Origin: Candidatus Eremiobacteria bacterium
GTDB lineage: Bacteria > Vulcanimicrobiota > Vulcanimicrobiia > Vulcanimicrobiales > Vulcanimicrobiaceae
Assembly (NCBI GenBank): GCA_963758295.1
Contig: CAVWUU010000001.1
Span: 384,001 to 448,000 of the forward strand
Direction: 5' to 3'
Length of the DNA: 64,000 nt
In this document: in pieces, positions 8,936 through 19,005 of the stretch
Layout of the letters: every line of letters begins with the position of its first letter
Numbering within the stretch: the stretch's first letter is position 1
Notes under the pieces: generated by a model
What the model was told of the DNA's origin: nothing
Databases searched by the model: none
What the model saw: the letters and a program-made list of their open reading frames with translations, nothing else
Translations under genes and position numbers: made by a program

Positions 8936-9005
8936 TTTTGTGCGGATCGGGTAGAGTGAGCTTCAGAACATCACTCGCTTTCAGCAAAAGGTGGAACTAC
9001 TCATA

Positions 9006-9560
9006 ATGTTGGCGCAAGTCGGCAAACAGGCACCCGATTTCAAACTTCCGAGCACCAAAGGCGCGACCGGAGCGAAGGACCTCGGCAAAGAGATCAAGCT
9101 CTCCGACTATCGCGGCAAATGGCTCGTGTTCTTCTTTTATCCACTGGACTTTACGTTTGTGTGTCCGACCGAAATCACGGCACTTTCGGACCGTGCAGAC
9201 GAGTTCAAAGAGTTTGATACCGAGATCCTCGGCGCGTCGACTGATTCGGTGCACAGCCACTGGGCATGGATCAACACGCCGCGTGAGAAGAACGGCATCG
9301 CGGGTCTGAACTACCCGCTAGTCGCCGACTACACGAAGGAAACGGCGCGTGCCTACGGCGTTCTCGACGAAGCGTCGGGCGTCGCGCAACGCGGGCTCTT
9401 CATTATTGATCCGGAAGGCGTGCTCAAATACGCGGTGGTGACCGACGACAACGTCGGACGTAGCGTAGAAGAAACGCTTCGCGTTCTGCAGGCTCTTCAG
9501 ACCGGTGGTCTTTGCCCGGCTGAATGGAAACCCGGCAAAGCGCTGCTCCAGAAGGCATAA
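9006..9560 (+). CDS. ahpC: 2-Cys peroxiredoxin (AhpC/TSA)
   Basis: FFYPLDFTFVCPTEI, RGLFIIDPEG, GRSVEETLRVLQALQ, LCPAEW. Confidence 0.95.
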   Translation: MLAQVGKQAPDFKLPSTKGATGAKDLGKEIKLSDYRGKWLVFFFYPLDFTFVCPTEITALSDRADEFKEFDTEILGASTDSVHSHWAWINTPREKNGIAGLNYPLVADYTKETARAYGVLDEASGVAQRGLFIIDPEGVLKYAVVTDDNVGRSVEETLRVLQALQTGGLCPAEWKPGKALLQKA

Positions 9561-10037
9561 ATGGCACTACGCATGCGCAGCCCTCTTCCTTCGCTGGAGG
9601 GGGCTGCCGCGTGGCTCAACGGTGAAGTAAAGTCCGAAGAGCTGCGCGGACTTCCCGTCGTTGTCTCCTTTTGGTCGAAGAGCTGTTACATCTGCCATGA
9701 CACCGCCGAGCAATTCGCGCAGTGGCGCGATAAATACGCAAAGCACGGTGTCGCCTTTCTTTCGGTGCATCAGCCGCGTTCCGAGGACGAACTCGACGTC
9801 GAAGCAGTGAAAAAAGATGCCGTCGAAGAGATGAAGCTTACTCAGCCCACGGCGATCGACAACGATCACGCGCTTGTGGAGCGCTTCCAAAACCAATTCG
9901 TGCCGGCGTTTTACGTCTTCAACCGAAAGCACGAATTGCGTCACTTTCAAGCGGGCGGCAAAGGCTTCGAGCGTATCGAAGCGGCGATCGACCGCGTATT
10001 GAACGAGACGCCGGAGGAAGAAGAACTGAACGCTTAG
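9561..10037 (+). CDS. TlpA-like redoxin (thioredoxin fold)
   Basis: VVVSFWSKSCYIC CxxC motif, cis-Pro region FVPAFY; abuts ahpC. Confidence 0.85.
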   Translation: MALRMRSPLPSLEGAAAWLNGEVKSEELRGLPVVVSFWSKSCYICHDTAEQFAQWRDKYAKHGVAFLSVHQPRSEDELDVEAVKKDAVEEMKLTQPTAIDNDHALVERFQNQFVPAFYVFNRKHELRHFQAGGKGFERIEAAIDRVLNETPEEEELNA

Positions 10038-10101: not shown

Positions 10102-10157
10102 TCGCGTTTTACTGCTCTTAGCACCGGGTAATGGGCCACCGCTGGGAGGATCAATAC

Positions 10158-10439
10158 ATGAATAAAAGATTCGCAAGTTTTGTCGTGCTCGGAGCTCTTG
10201 CGGCCACTGCCTCTATAGCGGCAGTTGACGCAAAGACCGCCGCACCGACATCATCTGCAACGGCCTGTCCAAGCTCGTCACCAATGGCCTCCACATCCAA
10301 CACGATGAGCGAAGACAGTACGAAAATGGAAAACTGCGCCTCGCCCTCACCCGGAGCGATGAGCAGCATGGCTCCCGGAGCAAAGGCAAGCCCCGGAACC
10401 ATGGGCAGCGCAGCGCCGACCTACACAGCTCGTCCCTAA
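10158..10439 (+). CDS. Small secreted Ser/Ala/Pro/Met-rich protein
   Basis: GGGAGG RBS; signal peptide MNKRFASFVVLGALAATASIAAVDA; low-complexity mature part with two Cys. Confidence 0.75.
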   Translation: MNKRFASFVVLGALAATASIAAVDAKTAAPTSSATACPSSSPMASTSNTMSEDSTKMENCASPSPGAMSSMAPGAKASPGTMGSAAPTYTARP

Positions 10440-10496: not shown

Positions 10497-12446
10497 GTGC
10501 ACGACGGGTCTTTCCGCCTCGCCGTTTTTTGCGGGCCATCGTTGCCTCAATGCGATCGTCTGGCCGACGACCGCGTAACGTATCTGCCGCCGGCATCGCG
10601 CGGCGACGTTCTTCGTGCCGCTAAAGACTACGACGCCGTCCTGCTTATCGACGGCCTCTTCCATCACGATCTCGCGCCTGCGCCGAAAGAATGTTACGAA
10701 TCGACGCTGCACGCCCGAATGTTCGGCGCATCGAGTATGGGCGCGCTGCGCGCGGCCGAATGCGCGCCATACGGTTTTGTGGCGCTTGGCGCTATTGCTG
10801 GTTGGTACGTTCGTGAATCGATCGATGGTGACGATGAAGTCGCGGTGTTAACGCATCCGCAGTCCGGCCGCGCGATCACCGTTCCCGTGGTGAACGTGCG
10901 GCACGTGGCGCGGCTAGCTCGGCGTCGCGGACTGCTTTCGCGTGCGGGCGAGGCGCAGTTCATCGCTAGCGCACGCGAGATTTACTACATGGACCGGAGT
11001 TGGGACGGCGTCATTGCATGCGCGCCTCCGTCGATTGCCAAGCAGTTACACGAACTCATTATGGAGTCAGGAGATCTAAAGCGCCTCGATGCGCGCTTTG
11101 CACTTCGGACGGTGATAAGAACGCTTCAGCGCACAAAAGACGCACGGATTCCATTCGTTACGAAGCGCCCTGCATGCGAATCGGCGCGCGAGTCCGGCGA
11201 AGTGCGACTGCCCTCGACTTCTCCGAAAGATCCCTCGACGTACGATCGCGCGACCAGCTATGCCAGCACGCTCGATCTTGCTCCGGAATTGCGGCGTCGT
11301 TTTGGAATCACTCGCATAGCGGATATAACGAACCTCGACCGGGTCGGCATCCCGGTCTATTCAACGCTCGTTCCGCGTTCGCCCGACATGCTCGGCGTCT
11401 ACAACGGGAAAGGGCTAACGCGCGACGCGTCCATCGCGAGCGCGATCATGGAGGCCGCAGAACGGCAGATCGCCGCCAACGTGCGCCTTCCGGCTTTCGA
11501 GGAAACGGTTGAAGCGGTTTCGCAGCACATCGATCTTCCCGAACTCGGAATGATTGACGTAGCGCCGTCAATGCCGGTACAGTGCGTTCGCGGGACGGAA
11601 TTGCTCTCGGGCGATTCGGTTGCGATTCCGCTTGCACTCGTCCAATGTCCGTGGTTCGGAGAGAAGCTCTTCGATGTCACCAGCACGAACGGGCTCGCGT
11701 CAGGCAACAATATAGCGGAAGCTGTTTATCATGCCTTGTGCGAATTGGTCGAGCGCCACGCCTGGGCGATGTATCACGTACGTTCGTCACTTGTTCCGCG
11801 GCTGTTCGGCGGAACGAACGCGATGGATCGCAGCGTCGCTCCGCAGCTAAAGCTGCCGACGGGCGACCGAGTCGTCGACGCGCTGATCGAAAAAATCGAA
11901 TCCGCCCGACTCGTGTTGCGAGCATTCTTGCTCGAAGAGGCGGAGCTGCCCTATACGGTATTCGTCTCGATTTTTGAGCCGGATCTCGAACCGCCGATGG
12001 TGCACATGGGCATGGGCTGTTCGCTTTCCCCCGCGCATGCGCTGGTACGGGCGCTGACCGAGGCCGTGCAGAGCCGTGCGATCGACATTCAGGGGGCGCG
12101 CGAAGACATGTTGCGTCCCGACGATCCACCGACAAATATGGGCGAACATAATCGACGCCGCAAAGAGTTACCAAAAGATCGTTGGTATTTCGACTTGCCG
12201 GCTCGAGAGATCGAGCTTTCGGGCTTCGTCGATCGTTCGAGCGATGACGTCGCACAAGATGTCCGCACGACGCTCGGCGCGCTCGCCGGTTACGGAATCC
12301 GAAAGATCTTTGCGGTCGAACTAGCGCCGGCGGATTTGTCCGTCAGCGTCGTGCGAGCGATCGTCCCGGGGTTGGAATCGTTTATGTACAGCGGGCGGCT
12401 CGGATCGCGAACTCGGGCGCTGCTCAACCCATTCGCGGTCGCCTGA
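10497..12446 (+). CDS. TfuA-YcaO fusion protein (putative thioamide synthetase)
   Basis: TfuA: VFCGPSL, PPASRGDV, LIDGLF, GASSMGALRAAE, DDEVAV, DLKRLDA. YcaO: GITRIADITNLDRVGIPV, NGKG, MEAAER, STNGLASG, ELVERHA, ALTEAVQSR, IQGARED, VRAIVPGLE. Confidence 0.92.
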   Translation: MHDGSFRLAVFCGPSLPQCDRLADDRVTYLPPASRGDVLRAAKDYDAVLLIDGLFHHDLAPAPKECYESTLHARMFGASSMGALRAAECAPYGFVALGAIAGWYVRESIDGDDEVAVLTHPQSGRAITVPVVNVRHVARLARRRGLLSRAGEAQFIASAREIYYMDRSWDGVIACAPPSIAKQLHELIMESGDLKRLDARFALRTVIRTLQRTKDARIPFVTKRPACESARESGEVRLPSTSPKDPSTYDRATSYASTLDLAPELRRRFGITRIADITNLDRVGIPVYSTLVPRSPDMLGVYNGKGLTRDASIASAIMEAAERQIAANVRLPAFEETVEAVSQHIDLPELGMIDVAPSMPVQCVRGTELLSGDSVAIPLALVQCPWFGEKLFDVTSTNGLASGNNIAEAVYHALCELVERHAWAMYHVRSSLVPRLFGGTNAMDRSVAPQLKLPTGDRVVDALIEKIESARLVLRAFLLEEAELPYTVFVSIFEPDLEPPMVHMGMGCSLSPAHALVRALTEAVQSRAIDIQGAREDMLRPDDPPTNMGEHNRRRKELPKDRWYFDLPAREIELSGFVDRSSDDVAQDVRTTLGALAGYGIRKIFAVELAPADLSVSVVRAIVPGLESFMYSGRLGSRTRALLNPFAVA

Positions 12447-13297
12447 TGGAAAACCAAGACGGGTTACTCGCGCGGGTTTTACGCGGTGATTCGGCCGAGC
12501 GGCACCACTGGGACGAATACTACCGGACATTCCATGCGATGCGGCCGCGCACGACGTCGACGTACGCGGGAAGGCTCCGAACCGAAGATGCTAAGAGTTC
12601 CTATGATGTTTTGGCGGATGCGCTTGCGCCGGTCCGGTCGGTCCTGGATATAGGATGCGGGGACGGGGTGCTGCTCGCCGCAATTCACGAACGCTTTCCG
12701 AGCGCAGTCCTTTCGGGCGTGGACCTCGGCGAAGTGGATCTCGAGTTTGCGAGAGAGCGTCTGCATAACGTGCCGATCGGGACGCTCGCCGTTGAAAATG
12801 CATTAGATCTTCCGTTTGGCGATGAGTCGTTCGATGCGGTCGTCTCTCACATGGTCTTCATGCTGATTCCGGAGTTGGACGACGTGTTGCGCCAGGCGAG
12901 ACGCGTCTTAAAAGAGGACGGGACCGTTGCGTTTGTCGTCGGCGATCCGGCAGCTACCGAAGGTCATATGCGCCGATTTTTTACCTCGGTCAACGAAGCG
13001 ATTCGTACGGAGCATCCAAAGTTCACTCCCCTCAATCCCGCCGATCCGCGAATCTTCGATACGAACGGCATCCGGGAAGCGATGGAGGGCCAGGGCTTCA
13101 CGAACGTCGCGCAAGTTCGGTTCAAATGCGCAGCGCAGCTCGATGCGGATAGCGTTTACGAACAACTCTTGCTACGCTACTACACAGGATCGCTCGGCGA
13201 ACTCGATCTCCAACGAATCAAGGACGTCGCCGGCGCTTTCGCATCGCCGTCGTTCCGCTACACCGAATCACTGCGTCTTGTGACCGCAAATCGTTAA
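12446..13297 (+). CDS. Class I SAM-dependent methyltransferase
   Basis: VLDIGCGDG motif I, GVDL, LPFGDESFDAVVS, RVLKEDG; ATG overlaps the TfuA-YcaO stop by 1 bp. Confidence 0.92.
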   Translation: MENQDGLLARVLRGDSAERHHWDEYYRTFHAMRPRTTSTYAGRLRTEDAKSSYDVLADALAPVRSVLDIGCGDGVLLAAIHERFPSAVLSGVDLGEVDLEFARERLHNVPIGTLAVENALDLPFGDESFDAVVSHMVFMLIPELDDVLRQARRVLKEDGTVAFVVGDPAATEGHMRRFFTSVNEAIRTEHPKFTPLNPADPRIFDTNGIREAMEGQGFTNVAQVRFKCAAQLDADSVYEQLLLRYYTGSLGELDLQRIKDVAGAFASPSFRYTESLRLVTANR

Positions 13298-13362
13298 AGC
13301 GGCCGCCTGTTTGTCCGATAGATTCCTAGAGCCGAACTAACTACTGCTTCAGCGAGGATTTC

Positions 13363-13641
13363 ATGGCGACAGTTCAACAGAAGGCGATTGCCGCCGGGTT
13401 TTTGCATGCATTGCAAGATCCCGCGGTGTTGGAAAAGTGGCAAGATGCCAAAGGCGATAGCATGAAGCTTCGCACGCTGATCAAAGACACGCTCGGGCTC
13501 TCGCAACTCCCCTCAGAGGCCGATCTGGATGCCATGCGCGGCCACGCCGAGGAAGCGCTTCAAGAAGAACACAAGACACTGCTCGAGCATCAAGAGCATG
13601 CGCCACACGTAGTCGGAAACGGATTTACCGTACAGCAGTAG
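13363..13641 (+). CDS. 92-aa protein, candidate RiPP precursor (Nif11-like leader)
   Basis: [26 protein letters not shown] and [11 protein letters not shown] resemble Nif11/NHLP leader motifs; directly follows the modifying enzymes. Confidence 0.65.
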
Positions 13642-16245
13642 ACTGGCTCAGAACCCAGGTCGCGATCTGAGTTCGTTTCGAAACGCCGAGCTTGTTGAAG
13701 ATGTTGGCGACGTGGCCTTCGATGGTACGTTCGCTCAAAACCAACTGCTCGGCGATTTCTTTATTGCTTCTTCCCTCCGAAATCAGATCCGCGATCTGAC
13801 GTTCGCGCGCCGTGAGCGAGCCGCCCGTTTTGCCATCGGCCAGCGTAGTTTGCGTTTGGAACCACGAGACGCCGCGCTCAGCGAGCCCTTTGGCGGCGTC
13901 GCGTTGTTCGGTGCCGCGCCCGCACGCGGCGAGCAACAAAAACCGTGCCAGCGTCATGCCCAAATACTCGCATTGCGTTGCGAGCGCTCCGATCGATCCC
14001 GAGAGCTGGCGGCCCAAGAAATGATTGGCGAGGGCACCCGTAACGCTGCGTTCCGCTGCGGAAAGGGGCTGCATGTCGGCCCAAAAGGCGGAACCGTCTG
14101 CCGCTCGAGCCAGAACGTCTTTTCGCTTCAGCCTTTGAGCTGCAAGTGCGATAGGCAGGCGCCACTGGAAAAGGTATGGGTCTTGCGAACTCGCCGCATA
14201 CGGAAGGGCGGCGTCGAGAAGCCGCGAGCTCGTTTGATCGTCCAGAAGTCCTGAAGCAGCCGACCATACCGCCATGTTATATAACACAGCCGATTTTTCG
14301 CCCGCGGCGAATCGCAGCGCTTCCGCCTCGATCGTCTTCCAATAAGAACCCGGCGATCCGCGCAGCGCATAGAGCGCCGCCGCACTGCCCAGAATACGTC
14401 CCCGCTCGGAGCCCTCCAGCGGCCGGCGCAACGAGTCTTCGATGCTAAGCGATGCCTCATCGAGACGCGCGCTCTGAATTTTTGAATGCAGAACGAACTG
14501 CGTGAGCTCCGGATTGCGCACGTCGTTCAATTGCATCCGGATGAAGCCGTTATCGCGCGTTCCGAACTGCATGTACCGAATGTAGGCGTCGACAACCACG
14601 GCATGATTGCTATTAGTCGAATGGAGGGACTTGGCGATCTCCGTTATGAGAGGTAGACGCTTGCGCGCCGCTTCATAATCGCCCGACCTGCTCTCGACGA
14701 ATGCTTGCGCAATCTCCGCTCGCATTCGGACCGGGGCCGGAAGCTCGATGTCCAGGTTCTCGATGTGTTGCAAAGTTCGCTGTAAGCCTTCAACGTCGTG
14801 TTCGCAAACGTTAAACCAAAGCGCTGCCCCGTGGAGCATCGATAAGTCAAGCGGATCGCTAAATACCGAAGCGTAGTGCCGATAGGTCAGTTTAGCCGAC
14901 TCATACCGGTCGCCAAAGAATTGTGACAAGACGAGTTGCGCCGCAAGTGCACCGAGATTCGGAAGCTTACGATATTGCGCTTCGCTTAGCGCATGAAGCA
15001 AGACGGTTTCCGCCCGGCGATCCATCGTCGAAAAGCTCAGCGCTTTTGCAAAATTTCCGTAGAACTCCAAAAAGGCGTCGTCCGGCGGCTCGCCAAGCTC
15101 CATGTGGCTTTCCGAGGCGGAAATAACCATGCGAAAAAGATTTTTTTCGTTAGCTTGCGATGAAAGCGCAAGATACGTTTCCTGCGCGAGTTTGCGGTCT
15201 CCGGCGGATAGCGCCTGTTCGGCTATTAGTAAGCGGTCTTCGACTCGCAATCGATCCGCTCGGGAAATCGCTTCGATGATCGGCGGTGCAGCGGGATCTT
15301 GATCGGAATCGTTTCCAGCACCGCTTCGCCCACAAGCGCGTGTCTGAAGCGTAGCGTCGCGCCTTCCTGAACGAGATACTGCGCGGCCGATTGCGCGATG
15401 TATTCGCCGAGTTCGGTGCTGTTCGTCCACAGGCGTGCCAACAGATCGTACTCGATCGGCTCGGGAAGGAGGGACACGATTTGAAGAAACGTGCGAAACC
15501 CGGAGCTTAGACCCTGGATACGACGAGCAATTAACGAACGCGTGCTTCTCTCAACGTCGCCCGCGTTGTGCGCATCGTTTTCGGCCGCTGCTTCGGCGAG
15601 CGCCGTGAGATCGAGCGGAACACCGCCCGAGTGCTCGATGATCCGGTCGATGACGGCCGTTTCCGCGTGCGGCAGCGATTGCTCGACGAGTTCTCTTGCG
15701 CGACGCGCATCCAGCGTGCCAAGACCGATCGTTTCGTCTACTGCCAGAGGGACGTCTGAAGCCATCTCGTCGCTTCGGCGCGCGAGAACGAGAAGGAGCG
15801 GCGAACTTGCAAACTGCGGAACGATAGCATCCAGCGCCGACAGCGTTTCTTCATCAGCCCACTGCGCGTCGTCCAATAGCAACGCGACCGGACGGTCAAG
15901 AAGAATGCCTTCGAGCGCTGTTGATAACGCAATTGCCGGATCGTGCCCTGCACCGTCCGCCGCGAAGTAGCGCGTTGAGTCCGGGCCCAAAGCGTTCGCG
16001 ATTTGCGAAAGCATGCGCGAAAGCGAGGCGTACGGAACGGTCGCCTGGATCCGAAAAGCGGCCGTGCCTACCACGAGCGCCCCTTGCTGTTGAAGCCGGC
16101 CGGCAAGCTCTGCCATAACAGCGCTCTTGCCGATGCCGCTCGGTCCCTCAACGAGCAAGACTCGGGGCACCGGCGTGGTAACGGCCGTTTTGAAAAGATC
16201 CAGGGCGGACGCGATTTCCCGTTCGCGGCCGATGAGGGAAGACAT
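13625..16245 (-). pseudogene. LAL-family (AAA ATPase + LuxR HTH) regulator split by a 1-bp deletion near 15281
   Basis: LIGREREI, GPSGIGKS, LLLDDAQWAD, FRHAL in ORF 15226..16245; [38 protein letters not shown] in ORF 13625..15430; joins as PLHRR|IIEAISR (about 873 aa). Confidence 0.85.
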
Positions 16246-16302
16246 GACCTCTCACGGTCCTGGTTGCCCGCCTGATTTTCCTTCTAATTTGACTTCATCA
16301 TA

Positions 16303-16349
16303 ACCAGGGGTTTCCACGGGCGACCCGGGGGTGTTTGCCCTGCTAGGCT
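16303..16349 (+). promoter_or_regulatory. Candidate LAL-binding box plus extended -10
   Basis: ACCAGGGGTTTCCACGGGC (16303-16321), 22 nt, then TAGGCT (16344-16349) preceded by TGC. Confidence 0.5.
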
Positions 16350-16370
16350 TAGCGCGTGGAGGAGCTTTCT

Positions 16371-16730
16371 ATGTATGCACCCGCGCTGACCCTGACCGGT
16401 TTTCCGGATCACCGCCCGAGGAGCACGCGCATGCGATCGTCCGTTCCGTACTGCTTCATCTTGGACGACACGTACCGGATCGTGATGGCCGGCCCGTCGG
16501 GCGGAGAAGACCCGCTTGCTCCCTACTACGCCTCCGACTCAGAACCCGATGTGTTACCCGGTCCCGTCGACCGCGTCGTACGCGCCCTCACGGCGGCCTG
16601 GCGTTCAACGAGAGCCGCTGCAAGCGCATCGGCATCGGTTAACGAGTTGCAGGTAACCGTGGCGCCCCTTCACGGAACCGACGGACGAAAGATCGCGGTT
16701 TTCGTGCAGCGATCCGACGAACAGAAGTAA
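16371..16730 (+). CDS. Hypothetical protein (small alpha/beta, PAS-like pattern)
   Basis: GGAGG RBS; CFILDDTYRIVMA...VTVAPLHGTDGRKIAVFVQ; divergent from the LAL gene. Confidence 0.7.
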   Translation: MYAPALTLTGFPDHRPRSTRMRSSVPYCFILDDTYRIVMAGPSGGEDPLAPYYASDSEPDVLPGPVDRVVRALTAAWRSTRAAASASASVNELQVTVAPLHGTDGRKIAVFVQRSDEQK

Positions 16731-16776: not shown

Positions 16777-18720
16777 TTGCTGGCTGTGCGAATTGAATTA
16801 ACCGCCCGCGGCCTTCTGCTCGGCGGCCTTATTACGCTGGTTTTTACCGCAGCCAACGTTTATCTCGGCCTCAGGGTCGGCCTCACATTTGCATCTTCCA
16901 TCCCAGCCGCTGTCATTTCGATGGCGGTTCTTCGTATGTTCCGCAACTCGACGATTTGGGAAAACAACATCGTTCAGACGGTGGCGTCGGCGGCCGGGAC
17001 GCTCTCCTCGGTAATCTTCGTTCTGCCGGGTCTCGTGATGGTAGGCTGGTGGACGGGCTTTCCGTTCTGGGAATCGTTCGGCATTTGCGCCGTCGGCGGA
17101 ATTCTGGGCGTAATGTACAGCGTGCCGCTGCGTCGTGCGCTCGTAACGTATTCCGATCTGCCGTATCCGGAAGGCGTTGCAGCCGCCGAAGTATTGCGCG
17201 TCGGGGCGGGCGAGGGCGCGACCGAAGCGCAAGCCGAGAATCGCCTTGGGCTCATCGCGCTAGTTGTAAGTTCCGTCGCATCGGCGGCCGTGCAGCTCGG
17301 CGTTGCCTTTCGTTTGTTTGCCGCCGACCTCACGGCATTCTTCCGTGCGGGTAAATCCTCGACGGGTATCGATTTTTCGCTTTCGCTCGCGCTGATCGGC
17401 GCCGGCCACCTAATCGGGCTCACCGTTGGTATGGCAATATTCGCCGGGCTGATCATTGCGTGGGGAATCGCGATTCCGATTCTCACGGCGATGCATCCGA
17501 TGCCTGGGCCGGCAGCCGACGTGGCAAATTACGTTTGGTCGCATTACGTGCGATTCATCGGCGCGGGGGCGATCGGTATCTCGGCCATTTGGACGCTCGG
17601 CAAACTCGCTGCGCCGGTGTGGAACGGCGTCGCTTCCGCTATCGCGGCGTCCCGTCATCGCGCCCAAGTCGGCGCCGAAAGCCTGCCCATCACCGAGCAA
17701 GATTTGCCGATCGGGATCGTGGCGATGATTTCGACCGTCTGCCTGCTGCCGATCGTCATCCTGTTGTGGGCCTTTCTCTCGGGGACGGCGATCGTGGGCA
17801 TGGGGCCGGTGCTAATTATCGGTGCCGTGTTGTACATCGTGCTCGCCGGTTTTCTGGTTGCTGCCGCAACCGGCTATATGGCCGGACTTATCGGCTCTTC
17901 AAACAGTCCGGTTTCCGGCATGGCGATTCTCTCGGTAATCGGCGCGTCGTTGCTGTTGCTCGTGCTTTCGCATGGTGCGGATAAATCGTCGGCGCCCGCG
18001 CTCGTCGCCTATGCATTGTTTGTTACGGCGCTGTTGATCAACGTCGCAACCATTTCGAACGATAACTTGCAAGATTTGAAGACCGGCCAGCTCGTTGGAG
18101 CAACGCCATGGCGGCAGCAAGTCGCGCTGATGGTCGGCGTGATTTTTGGCGCAATCGTGATTCCGCCGGTCCTTGTTGTGCTCAACAAGGCCTACGGCTT
18201 CGGCGGTCCGCACGGGTTGCCGGCTCCGCAAGCGACGTTGATCTCCACGCTCGCCAAGGGCGTGATTCAGGGGCAGATCGACTGGAGTTTGATCGGGATC
18301 GGCGTGCTCGTCGGTATCGGGATCATCATCATCGATGAAGCGGGCCGCATCAGTGGACGTTTCCGTCTGCCGCCGCTGGCTGTCGGCCTGGGGATTTACT
18401 TGCCGACCAGCGCGACGGCCCCCGTGGTAGTCGGTGCGGTCTTCGGCAAGATTTACAACACTTGGGTCGCGACCAAACCGAACGGCGACGCAGCGCGCCG
18501 TCTCGGCGTGCTGGTCGCGTCGGGATTGATCGTCGGAGAAAGTGTTTTCGGCGTCTTCTTGGCCGGGCTTATCTACGTCTCGAATAAGCCGTCGCCGCTT
18601 GCGATCTTCGGCGATTCTTTTGCGGGCTGGGCGTTAGGCCTTGGAGCGATCGCGTTCGTCGCGATACCGTTTGCACTTTATCGCTGGATCGGCCGAAGCG
18701 CGCAAACGCTCGAAGCCTAA
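16777..18720 (+). CDS. OPT-family oligopeptide transporter
   Basis: FTAANVYLGLRVGLTFASSIPAAVISMA, ENNIVQT, LPYPEG, GSSNSPVSG, NDNLQDLKTG, APQATL. Confidence 0.95.
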   Translation: MLAVRIELTARGLLLGGLITLVFTAANVYLGLRVGLTFASSIPAAVISMAVLRMFRNSTIWENNIVQTVASAAGTLSSVIFVLPGLVMVGWWTGFPFWESFGICAVGGILGVMYSVPLRRALVTYSDLPYPEGVAAAEVLRVGAGEGATEAQAENRLGLIALVVSSVASAAVQLGVAFRLFAADLTAFFRAGKSSTGIDFSLSLALIGAGHLIGLTVGMAIFAGLIIAWGIAIPILTAMHPMPGPAADVANYVWSHYVRFIGAGAIGISAIWTLGKLAAPVWNGVASAIAASRHRAQVGAESLPITEQDLPIGIVAMISTVCLLPIVILLWAFLSGTAIVGMGPVLIIGAVLYIVLAGFLVAAATGYMAGLIGSSNSPVSGMAILSVIGASLLLLVLSHGADKSSAPALVAYALFVTALLINVATISNDNLQDLKTGQLVGATPWRQQVALMVGVIFGAIVIPPVLVVLNKAYGFGGPHGLPAPQATLISTLAKGVIQGQIDWSLIGIGVLVGIGIIIIDEAGRISGRFRLPPLAVGLGIYLPTSATAPVVVGAVFGKIYNTWVATKPNGDAARRLGVLVASGLIVGESVFGVFLAGLIYVSNKPSPLAIFGDSFAGWALGLGAIAFVAIPFALYRWIGRSAQTLEA

Positions 18721-18723
18721 ACG

Positions 18724-18930
18724 CTACGCCGTCTGAACGGGGCTGCGCTCGTCGCGCAGTCCCTGTTTCAACTGCGCCGCCAATTCCGGCGAATCGGCAT
18801 GGCCATGTGCGCCAACTGCGTGTTGTTTAGCCGCGGTCAAGACTTCATCTTCGGTTCCCGAGATATACAGCGAGCAATTCTTCTCGCTCGGGTAGTCACG
18901 GCAATCGATGTACTTGCGGTTCGTATCCAT
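18724..18930 (-). CDS. DUF1059-family small metal-binding protein
   Basis: RKYIDCRDYPSEKNCSLYISGTEDEVL.AA.QHAV..HGH. Confidence 0.8.
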   Translation of the reverse strand: MDTNRKYIDCRDYPSEKNCSLYISGTEDEVLTAAKQHAVGAHGHADSPELAAQLKQGLRDERSPVQTA

Positions 18931-19005
18931 CTGTGCTCTCACAAACTCGTCGCTCACACCGCGTAATTCACGATACGCCGCGCCGGCGGCCCCGTCAATG
19001 CGACC

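Follow-up and report, generated by a model that had tools for sequence, protein, structure and literature searches.

A precursor peptide family linked to TfuA-YcaO in Vulcanimicrobiales, a candidate source of thioamidated signals for an adjoining STAND regulator

The gene at positions 13363..13641 (+) of the window, which here means the whole stretch of 64,000 nucleotides analysed, very probably encodes the precursor of a TfuA-YcaO RiPP family lacking prior description. With equally high probability the 13-residue tail of this precursor is the substrate of the TfuA-YcaO enzyme, as judged from the sequences compared below. In the genomes covered the family occurs only together with sulfur-inserting enzymes and nearly always next to a large regulator, so that the tail probably becomes a sulfur-modified peptide and would serve as a signal, and we give about even chances to the reading that the thioamidated, allele-variable peptide would be a ligand or signal of the adjoining STAND regulator. 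A wider proposal is made more tentatively, and may well not hold: a new cell-cell signalling module in which thioamide pheromones with strain-specific alleles are imported, are read by STAND NTPase receptors whose outputs may be of LuxR, SARP, XRE or adenylate-cyclase type, and control the synthesis of c-di-GMP.

The precursor gene, its occurrence and its operon

The frame 13363-13641 (+), quoted in an earlier note on this DNA as a precursor candidate, is real. It translates into the 92-aa protein given there, a ribosome-binding site GAGGA (13354..13358, +) lies 4 nt upstream, and its homologues were found beyond chance. Nine close homologues, 57-82% identical, are every one 92 aa long, and 31 more matches, up to E 0.001, were obtained in the representative library. 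One of these (P0034, 3726 aa) proved to be a repeat-rich false match and was discarded. No longer or fused precursor forms were found among 7990 candidates searched, which is weak evidence. The family is unnamed: no Pfam or NCBIfam model covers any of the 34 members tested, a PDB sequence search with the family profile gave nothing credible, and a search of mostly open-access papers, the cluster tables in the supplement of PMC8120280 set aside, found no account of these clusters.

A profile (A1) built from the precursor and its nine homologues, ten sequences together, matches 46 of the 301 genomes of the order, a set in which 73 genomes are TfuA-positive. All 46 have TfuA, on the same contig and within 7 kb in 42; the other four are fragmented assemblies. 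The earlier suggestion of a RiPP-type precursor tied to TfuA-YcaO is thus supported. Small ORFs adjoining TfuA-YcaO in further genomes are distant members of the family, and a wider profile, partly circular for those distant members found beside TfuA-YcaO, matches 67 of 401 genomes of the phylum (0/99 from other families), all 67 being among the 73 with TfuA. The six TfuA genomes lacking a family match comprise two in which small ORFs that the profile does not match occupy this place, one whose contig stops after the enzyme and three with a different type of TfuA-YcaO. For comparison of neighbourhoods 5-18 kb were fetched around every peptide-positive locus, giving 69 loci from 67 genomes and 22 genera; three genera that share a gene order account for 34 of the 69, so that these kin are not independent. 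YcaO is present in 67 of the fetched loci. Genomes flagged as unpublished (G161, G163, G237, G264 and G178) count in denominators only, save that G178 also enters the box and cyclase counts given below.

The precursor gene is the third and last gene of an operon that starts with a TfuA-YcaO fusion (10497..12446, +), a predicted thioamide synthase by its Pfam and best PDB matches, and continues with an accessory class I SAM methyltransferase (12446..13297, +). The fusion carries PF07812 (residues 52-168) and PF02624 (303-627), and its closest solved structures are the thioamide-forming MJ1094 (6PE3, E 7e-32) and TfuA (6XP8, E 1e-24). The ATP-site motifs of YcaO are kept, NGxAxG in 63/66 copies and ExxER in 66/66, and a proline-rich PxPxP or PHPF C-terminus was seen in 0/66. 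Azoline-forming YcaOs end in such a proline-rich motif, which is used as a class criterion. The kinship with MJ1094 and TfuA, the kept ATP motifs and the missing proline-rich end make thioamide formation the expected chemistry of the fusion. According to PMC13063428 TfuA draws on ThiS to provide sulfide when little of it is available, and ThiS is present in the host genome (82% complete) along with a single YcaO and a single-copy peptide gene.

The methyltransferase (PF08241) is found in 49/69 loci as labelled by loose BLAST matches. Its best PDB match is LahSB (6UAK, E 1e-11), described in PMC11285071 as a RiPP C-terminal carboxyl methyltransferase; an orthologue ranks LahSB only fifth, so this assignment is a weak lead. 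The 41 neighbour proteins scanned, each standing for one of the commoner clusters, include no C39 exporter, protease or other exporter, and no kinase or decarboxylase for aminovinyl-cysteine. Thioamitides of the thioviridamide type are recognised by a C-terminal Cys together with a kinase and a decarboxylase that form the aminovinyl-cysteine ring. Cys makes up 1.9% of the tail residues in this family, which thus falls outside that class. In the host genome, as far as it is complete (82%), neither McrA (MCR_alpha) nor C39 peptidases were found.

Just upstream of tfuA-ycaO and on the same strand lie genes for a peroxiredoxin (AhpC) and a redoxin (8991-10037, +). AhpC is present in 23/69 loci from 8 genera, which may indicate a redox link or inherited synteny. 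Between the redoxin gene and tfuA a 102-aa secreted-looking Ser/Met/Pro-rich protein is encoded (10131-10439, +), and small ORFs resembling it recur in other genera. A scan for sigma-70 promoters and terminators gave chance level only. An element CAGG...(about 17-20 nt)...GC[TA]AA, spotted by eye shortly before the tfuA start in L035, L038, L041, L046, L064, L090, L100, L102 and others, is possibly an alternative-sigma promoter.

Several loci are built differently. Genome G035 (L052, L115, L116) has two peptide-YcaO-STAND loci, which differ in type, and only one tfuA, located apart from them, which suggests a shared TfuA. Two YcaO genes and two precursors, one of them with five core repeats, occur together in L048 (6073-10355), and the cluster of L044 (8506-11554) has a B12-dependent radical SAM enzyme and a diguanylate cyclase gene inside the operon. 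In L059 (4871-5206) and L071 (3477-4606) small helical ORFs with YF(A)G-type tails stand between YcaO and an NB-ARC regulator; they do not match the family profile and are perhaps a sister family.

Leader and core of the precursor

The first 79 residues (13363..13599, +) form a leader domain, predicted as four helices, distantly Nif11-like and devoid of a double-glycine site. The structure model places the helices over residues 4-78 with pLDDT 68-83 over residues 1-70, and leaves the tail unstructured and at low confidence; a fold search with this model returned generic helical matches only (best Z 5.4). The earlier note had called the leader Nif11-like and had pointed to the motif in which such leaders end. 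The likeness was borne out in part, as a distant one. Against a profile of 25 Nif11 proteins from the same phylum hhalign aligned 52 columns with a probability of 45%, E 2e-4 and a score of 26.4, a level that amphipathic helices can reach; the reversed control scored 8.3 and 30 block shuffles at most 16.3. The motif did not stand, since the alignment spans the first helix and the upstream GFDFTxEE turn and not ELSDEELxxVAGG. The N11P family is defined in PMC2887384 by the ELSDEELEAVAGG cleavage motif, and no counterpart of ELSDEELEAVAGG is present in the leader. G60 is not conserved, and Gly-Gly within residues 55-84 occurs in 6/110 sequences. Neither PF07862 nor TIGR03798 matches the precursor (P0001), none of the 34 members reaches the cut-off and two divergent ones come to E 0.07 and 0.096. 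The lack of an HMM match and of a cleavage-motif counterpart places the family outside Nif11/N11P, and a distant kinship of the leader with Nif11 is plausible from the profile comparison. The host genome (G000) has no Nif11 match. Elsewhere, in L132 and L144 (G165:C93), tandem Nif11 precursors carry Val-rich terminal cores that lack Gly-Gly and resemble the Gly-free cores of the present family.

The core comprises residues 80-92 (13600..13638, +), with a conserved V-G (G85 is 13615-13617), a conserved Q91 and hypervariable residues 86-89. It is delimited by tandem repeats: P0012 and a precursor of L048 carry a 14-residue unit five times over, and this unit corresponds to the last 13 residues of the query, which agrees with the terminal core of about that length assumed in the earlier note. 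Core repeats are also carried by P0016, P0018, P0035 and P0040. Out of 127 sequences collected 120 were distinct. The tail counts use the 110 of these that are full-length and have a single core, and leave out rows that are multi-core, truncated or of odd length. The tails fall into 71 of a [VCA]-G type (P-x-x-V-G-x4-[MV]-Q-Q), 17 of an [ND]-G type and 22 of neither. Many of the last are Gly-free hydrophobic strands, so a glycine is not required across the family. Hydrophobic cores of very different sequence, some with glycine and some lacking it, thus seem to be tolerated by the YcaO as long as the leader is the same, and this would make the enzyme useful for installing thioamides. The protein's most variable columns (2.7-3.5 bits) include residues among 86-89. 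For the 17 genomes of genus g21 these four residues show pN 0.52 and pS 0.65 with flanks at pN 0.12 and 0.01, values that are uncorrected and not proof of positive selection.

It had been proposed that the tail repeats the thioglycine site of McrA, with thioamidation at a glycine of GNGF and methylation of nearby His residues. The McrA sequence cited for this agrees with PMC5589413, where the thioamidated Gly465 is the second Gly of LGFFGFDLQD. The site does not hold for the family as a whole: GNGF was found in 6/110 tails, GxGF in 9/110 and G[FY]xxQ in 11/110, few positions of the protein vary more than that of the second Gly, and the stable glycine is the first one (G85). Nor did the methylation claim survive alignment, the His residues of the His/Glu-rich stretch being conserved in 13% (H70), 8% (H76) and 1% (H79). 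A McrA mimic was consequently rejected as the general identity of the family, the motif not being conserved and no McrA having been found in the host genome (82% complete).

A narrower version concerns enzyme recognition, namely that an McrA-like G-F-x-x-Q is recognised independently of the leader, G87 is thioamidated and the methyltransferase methylates His. The closest solved relative of the YcaO is indeed the McrA enzyme MJ1094, a Q follows four residues past position 87 in 54/69 VG-type tails and F or Y directly in 32/71, the subgroup nearest the query has G or A at position 87 before F/Y (17/110), and [ND]-G cores put Gly in the same register. G[FY]xxQ is rare as such (2/2714 long-ORF ends in the host genome), but the motif was chosen after the fact. 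However, position 87 is Gly in only 10/71 VG-type tails, being mostly I, F, V, A or L, and the enzymes stay below the cut-offs of the McrA system (TIGR03266, 210 of 365 bits; NF033432, 135 of 235); together with the scarcity of GNGF, the absence of McrA and the unconserved His positions this makes the narrower version improbable too. As to the thioamide site itself, G85 is the best single guess. The conserved Q and the G or A before F in near relatives keep G87 as a candidate for this allele, and it is our second guess.

The lack of a protease, exporter or cleavage motif, from the neighbours scanned and the C39 search of the genome, would also suit an intracellular sulfur or redox reporter: an uncut 92-aa protein whose tail is thioamidated when sulfide allows, and which switches the STAND regulator as a whole. 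A leader predicted to fold, the peroxiredoxin and redoxin genes just upstream and the supply of ThiS sulfide by TfuA under scarcity (PMC13063428) all fit such a reporter. We consider it unlikely, as tandem core repeats and the presence of several precursor paralogues in one locus suit excised products, and neither the fast divergence of four core residues nor importers would be needed by an internal sensor.

The STAND regulator, the PAS gene and the box

The gene convergent with the precursor gene (13625..16245, -) encodes a STAND regulator made of an AAA_16 NTPase, a helical sensor and a LuxR HTH. Both genes overlap by 17 nt, tail-to-tail. One base is missing from a two-base run near 15281, which frameshifts the regulator and splits it in two ORFs; its two close relatives in L072 and L073 are intact, and the frameshift is possibly an assembly error (long-read) or recent decay. 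Within 500 bp of the peptide gene a STAND gene occurs in 66/69 loci (21/22 genera), the methyltransferase in 38, YcaO in 26 and TfuA in 7. Two of the three exceptions are contig ends and in the third the STAND gene is in pieces. The host genome has only 6 STAND loci in 3.03 Mb. The link of the peptide to YcaO drawn in the earlier note is right, but the tightest neighbour link, that to the STAND regulator, had been missed.

The peptide-STAND pairing is kept through changes of gene order, orientation and regulator type. In several genera YcaO and TfuA have moved across to the other flank of the regulator, and the peptide gene still adjoins it. Most regulators are of the AAA_16-sensor-LuxR type, convergent and often overlapping, with AAA_16 and GerE in 35/35 of those aligned. 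Another ten are NB-ARC-TPR proteins, headed by a BTAD, cyclase or XRE domain and encoded either convergently or divergently. A YcaO tree of 49 rows does not unite the loci of this second type in a single clade (p-AU 0.0008, 2-3 changes), the group having been defined by domain content and the AU test run after the first tree was viewed. The class of core follows the class of regulator: of the peptides beside the NB-ARC-TPR type 8/10 have [ND]-G cores by script, a ninth being misfiled as VG, and of those beside the LuxR type 1/63.

Within the regulator divergence is greatest in the sensor. TPR families match only 3/35 regulators, with weak matches to TPR proteins at 341-547, and the ATPase encoded in the window matches TIGR03903 at E 2e-17. 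In g21 the covariation of core and sensor has a partial r of 0.54 that falls to at most 0.26 with fuller controls, 23 windows having been tried; the methyltransferase reaches 0.28, and the value for the sensor is above that for YcaO. One of three EIAL cores is paired with an unlike sensor, and the covariation is a hint only. A complex prediction of the intact orthologous sensor of L032 (residues 300-805) with its unmodified precursor scored 0.00, which counts neither for nor against binding.

That the regulator is the closest neighbour might be explained by the small protein being a mere partner of STAND, an inhibitor or chaperone, while TfuA-YcaO modifies another protein; some YcaOs do modify folded proteins, uL16 being the example in PMC13063428. 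We regard this as very improbable, given that every peptide-positive genome has TfuA and that a Nif11-like leader and repeated cores are traits of precursors.

Divergent from the regulator lies a gene for a stand-alone 124-aa protein (16356..16730, +) with a predicted PAS-like fold, based on fold matches to many PAS domains at a middling Z of 6-8. It co-occurs with the system, being present in 40/69 loci. The close stand-alone subfamily (E < 1e-33, with a profile built from linked members) occurs in 46 genomes, all peptide-positive. A PAS-like domain is found more weakly in 168/301 genomes, mostly inside longer frames, so that only the close stand-alone subfamily tracks the system. A -10-like hexamer TAGGCT (16344..16349, +) ends 6 nt before the PAS start codon and the transcript is likely leaderless. 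Most g21 loci (L035, L036, L088-L110) encode a further AAA_16 protein, smaller than the regulator (about 430-470 aa), from a gene convergent with that for PAS.

The PAS gene is followed directly by that of an OPT-family oligopeptide transporter (16777..18720, +; PF03169, E 9e-96), a candidate importer, and a DUF1059 small protein (18724-18957, -) is convergent with the transporter gene. OPT occurs near 25 loci from 4 genera and a family-5 peptide-binding protein near 11 loci from 5 genera, so that 36/69 loci have one or the other and none has both. Importers are absent from the other 33 fetched loci and may be inherited synteny.

The divergent promoter between the regulator and PAS genes contains an operator-like box (16300..16321, +; matrix score 16.9 against a null maximum of 7.8), a 22-bp imperfect inverted repeat placed 21-25 nt before the -10-like hexamer. 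Such a position suits an activator site. The box precedes the PAS gene in 38/40 loci, including three of the held-out genus; its strict pattern occurs in 39/301 genomes, 38 of them peptide-positive, and these are largely training sites. The host genome has the box a second time (G000:C1:278412, -; L163:1574-2845), ahead of a PAS-GGDEF diguanylate cyclase gene, and additional copies in six further genomes, G178 among them, likewise precede such a gene. When homologous cyclase loci were compared the box was found in 24/30: 16/18 of the peptide-positive genomes, 5/9 of the peptide-negative ones (one of them G178) and 3/3 of unassigned status. For this reason its role as a system-specific operator was dropped, and the box is taken to belong to a wider LuxR-type network; its assignment to the adjoining STAND regulator we infer. 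No good box was found before tfuA-ycaO in the window, the second-best score of the locus being 3.8. Weak boxes precede PAS-tfuA-ycaO-peptide in two g20 loci, conserved boxes precede peptide-ycaO-tfuA operons divergent from BTAD-type regulators, and in L044 the cyclase gene lies inside the cluster. Upstream of the peptide gene L054, L057, L062 and L063 also share a CTCTT(T/C)CCGGG-TGGGGCCC-like element, in the gap that separates a STAND gene of BTAD type from its divergent peptide-ycaO-tfuA operon.

It is common for biosynthetic clusters to contain large ATP-binding regulators of the LuxR and SARP kinds that do no more than switch them on. The peptide could be an ordinary thioamidated natural product, its core released as an antimicrobial or other metabolite and STAND controlling expression on an unrelated signal. 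This would be in line with TfuA-YcaO and the multi-core precursors, with the B12 radical-SAM enzyme of L044, with the boxes before the two g20 loci (weak) and before the BTAD-divergent operons, and with thiovarsolin clusters, which in PMC6511847 are likewise described without a dedicated protease. Among the rival explanations it deserves the most weight and still seems doubtful, because it leaves unexplained why the peptide gene, and not the operon promoter, stays with the regulator through rearrangements (66/69 against 26/69 for YcaO) and why core class tracks regulator class. Moreover, the neighbours are importers, not exporters or immunity genes.

Proposed function and comparison with known systems

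In the proposed signalling scheme the leader would recruit YcaO, and ATP together with sulfide from ThiS/TfuA would give a thioamide at one or more backbone amides around V84-G85-N86-G87. The methyltransferase, where present, would cap the core, most plausibly at the C-terminal carboxylate, and housekeeping peptidases would cut the core from its helical leader. After import of the released core by OPT or Opp-type proteins its binding to the helical sensor could switch on the NTPase, and the LuxR domain could then activate box-bearing promoters, including that of the PAS-GGDEF diguanylate cyclase gene. The outcome would be a strain-specific peptide signal feeding c-di-GMP.

The substrate part of this scheme draws on TfuA in all positive genomes, the intact ATP motifs, the kinship with MJ1094 and TfuA, ThiS, and core repeats as in thiovarsolin precursors. 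The signal part draws on the proximity of STAND in 66/69 loci, the swaps of regulator type, the sorting of core class by regulator class, the hypervariable residues 86-89, the importers and the box. Against the signal part stand the lack of a protease or exporter among the neighbours scanned and of C39 in the 82% complete genome, the weak core-sensor covariation, a box that is not system-specific, importers in 36/69 loci only and a regulator that is frameshifted in this assembly.

To our knowledge neither product nor role has been established for most TfuA-YcaO clusters, and the ligands of MalT-like STAND regulators are mostly unknown. If the signalling reading is true, TfuA-YcaO RiPPs would gain a signalling role, and bacterial MalT-like STAND regulators would have a ligand that is a modified peptide encoded in the genome. 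Both questions are open to direct tests in a laboratory host, since the system supplies dozens of naturally paired peptides and regulators that vary by allele, a synthesis unit of three genes and a candidate operator.

The nearest known clusters are the thiovarsolins (varA/varY/varT; PMC6511847) and the TfuA-YcaO RiPPs surveyed in PMC8120280, where TfuA-YcaO also lies beside a short precursor, in some cases with repeated cores, and no dedicated protease is described; fused tfuA-ycaO and Nif11-like precursors both appear in that survey. As in those RiPPs, tfuA and ycaO here adjoin the precursor, with intact ATP motifs and no proline-rich end. In contrast to what these two sources describe, the precursor is unrelated, its folded leader of about 79 residues lacks Gly-Gly, and the STAND regulator is obligate; importers, a PAS gene and the box are added, and the phylum is another.

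With the methanogen YcaO-TfuA that acts on McrA Gly465 (TIGR03266, NF033432; PMC5589413) the locus shares the closest solved enzymes, the predicted chemistry and, in this one allele, G-F-x-x-Q, whereas McrA is missing, the enzymes fall below both cut-offs and the motif is not conserved. With N11P (PF07862, TIGR03798), as portrayed in PMC2887384, it shares a long helical leader, whose first helix and GFDFTxEE-like turn align over 52 columns, and a variable C-terminal core; N11P has ELSDEELxxVAGG and a C39 exporter, neither of which was found with the present family, and the conservation of the latter runs on into the core.

NHLP-Burk precursors (TIGR03795) with TIGR03903 are similar in their long leader, in having motif 1 only, in an 11-residue suffix and in their dependence on YcaO. 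TIGR03903 genes, which are TOMM kinase/cyclase fusions, presumably adjoin these precursors. None of the 34 family members matches TIGR03795, and NHLP-Burk stands for azole chemistry with a cyclodehydratase, whereas the family described here goes with TfuA and with LuxR, BTAD, XRE or cyclase output domains.

In RRNPP sensing (Rap/Phr, PlcR/PapR, Rgg/SHP) and among agr pherotypes a small peptide gene stands beside a helical-repeat regulator, a hypervariable window lies in a conserved frame and oligopeptides are imported. RRNPP regulators combine an HTH or phosphatase with TPR and have no NTPase. Membership was rejected here, AAA_16 and GerE being present in 35/35 regulators and TPR families in 3/35. 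The receptor would be a MalT-like STAND NTPase and the peptide would be enzymatically thioamidated, and neither a signal peptide nor an exporter was seen. By analogy, then, the system appears to work like RRNPP sensing and to resemble the NHLP-Burk arrangement, while standing outside the definition of either.
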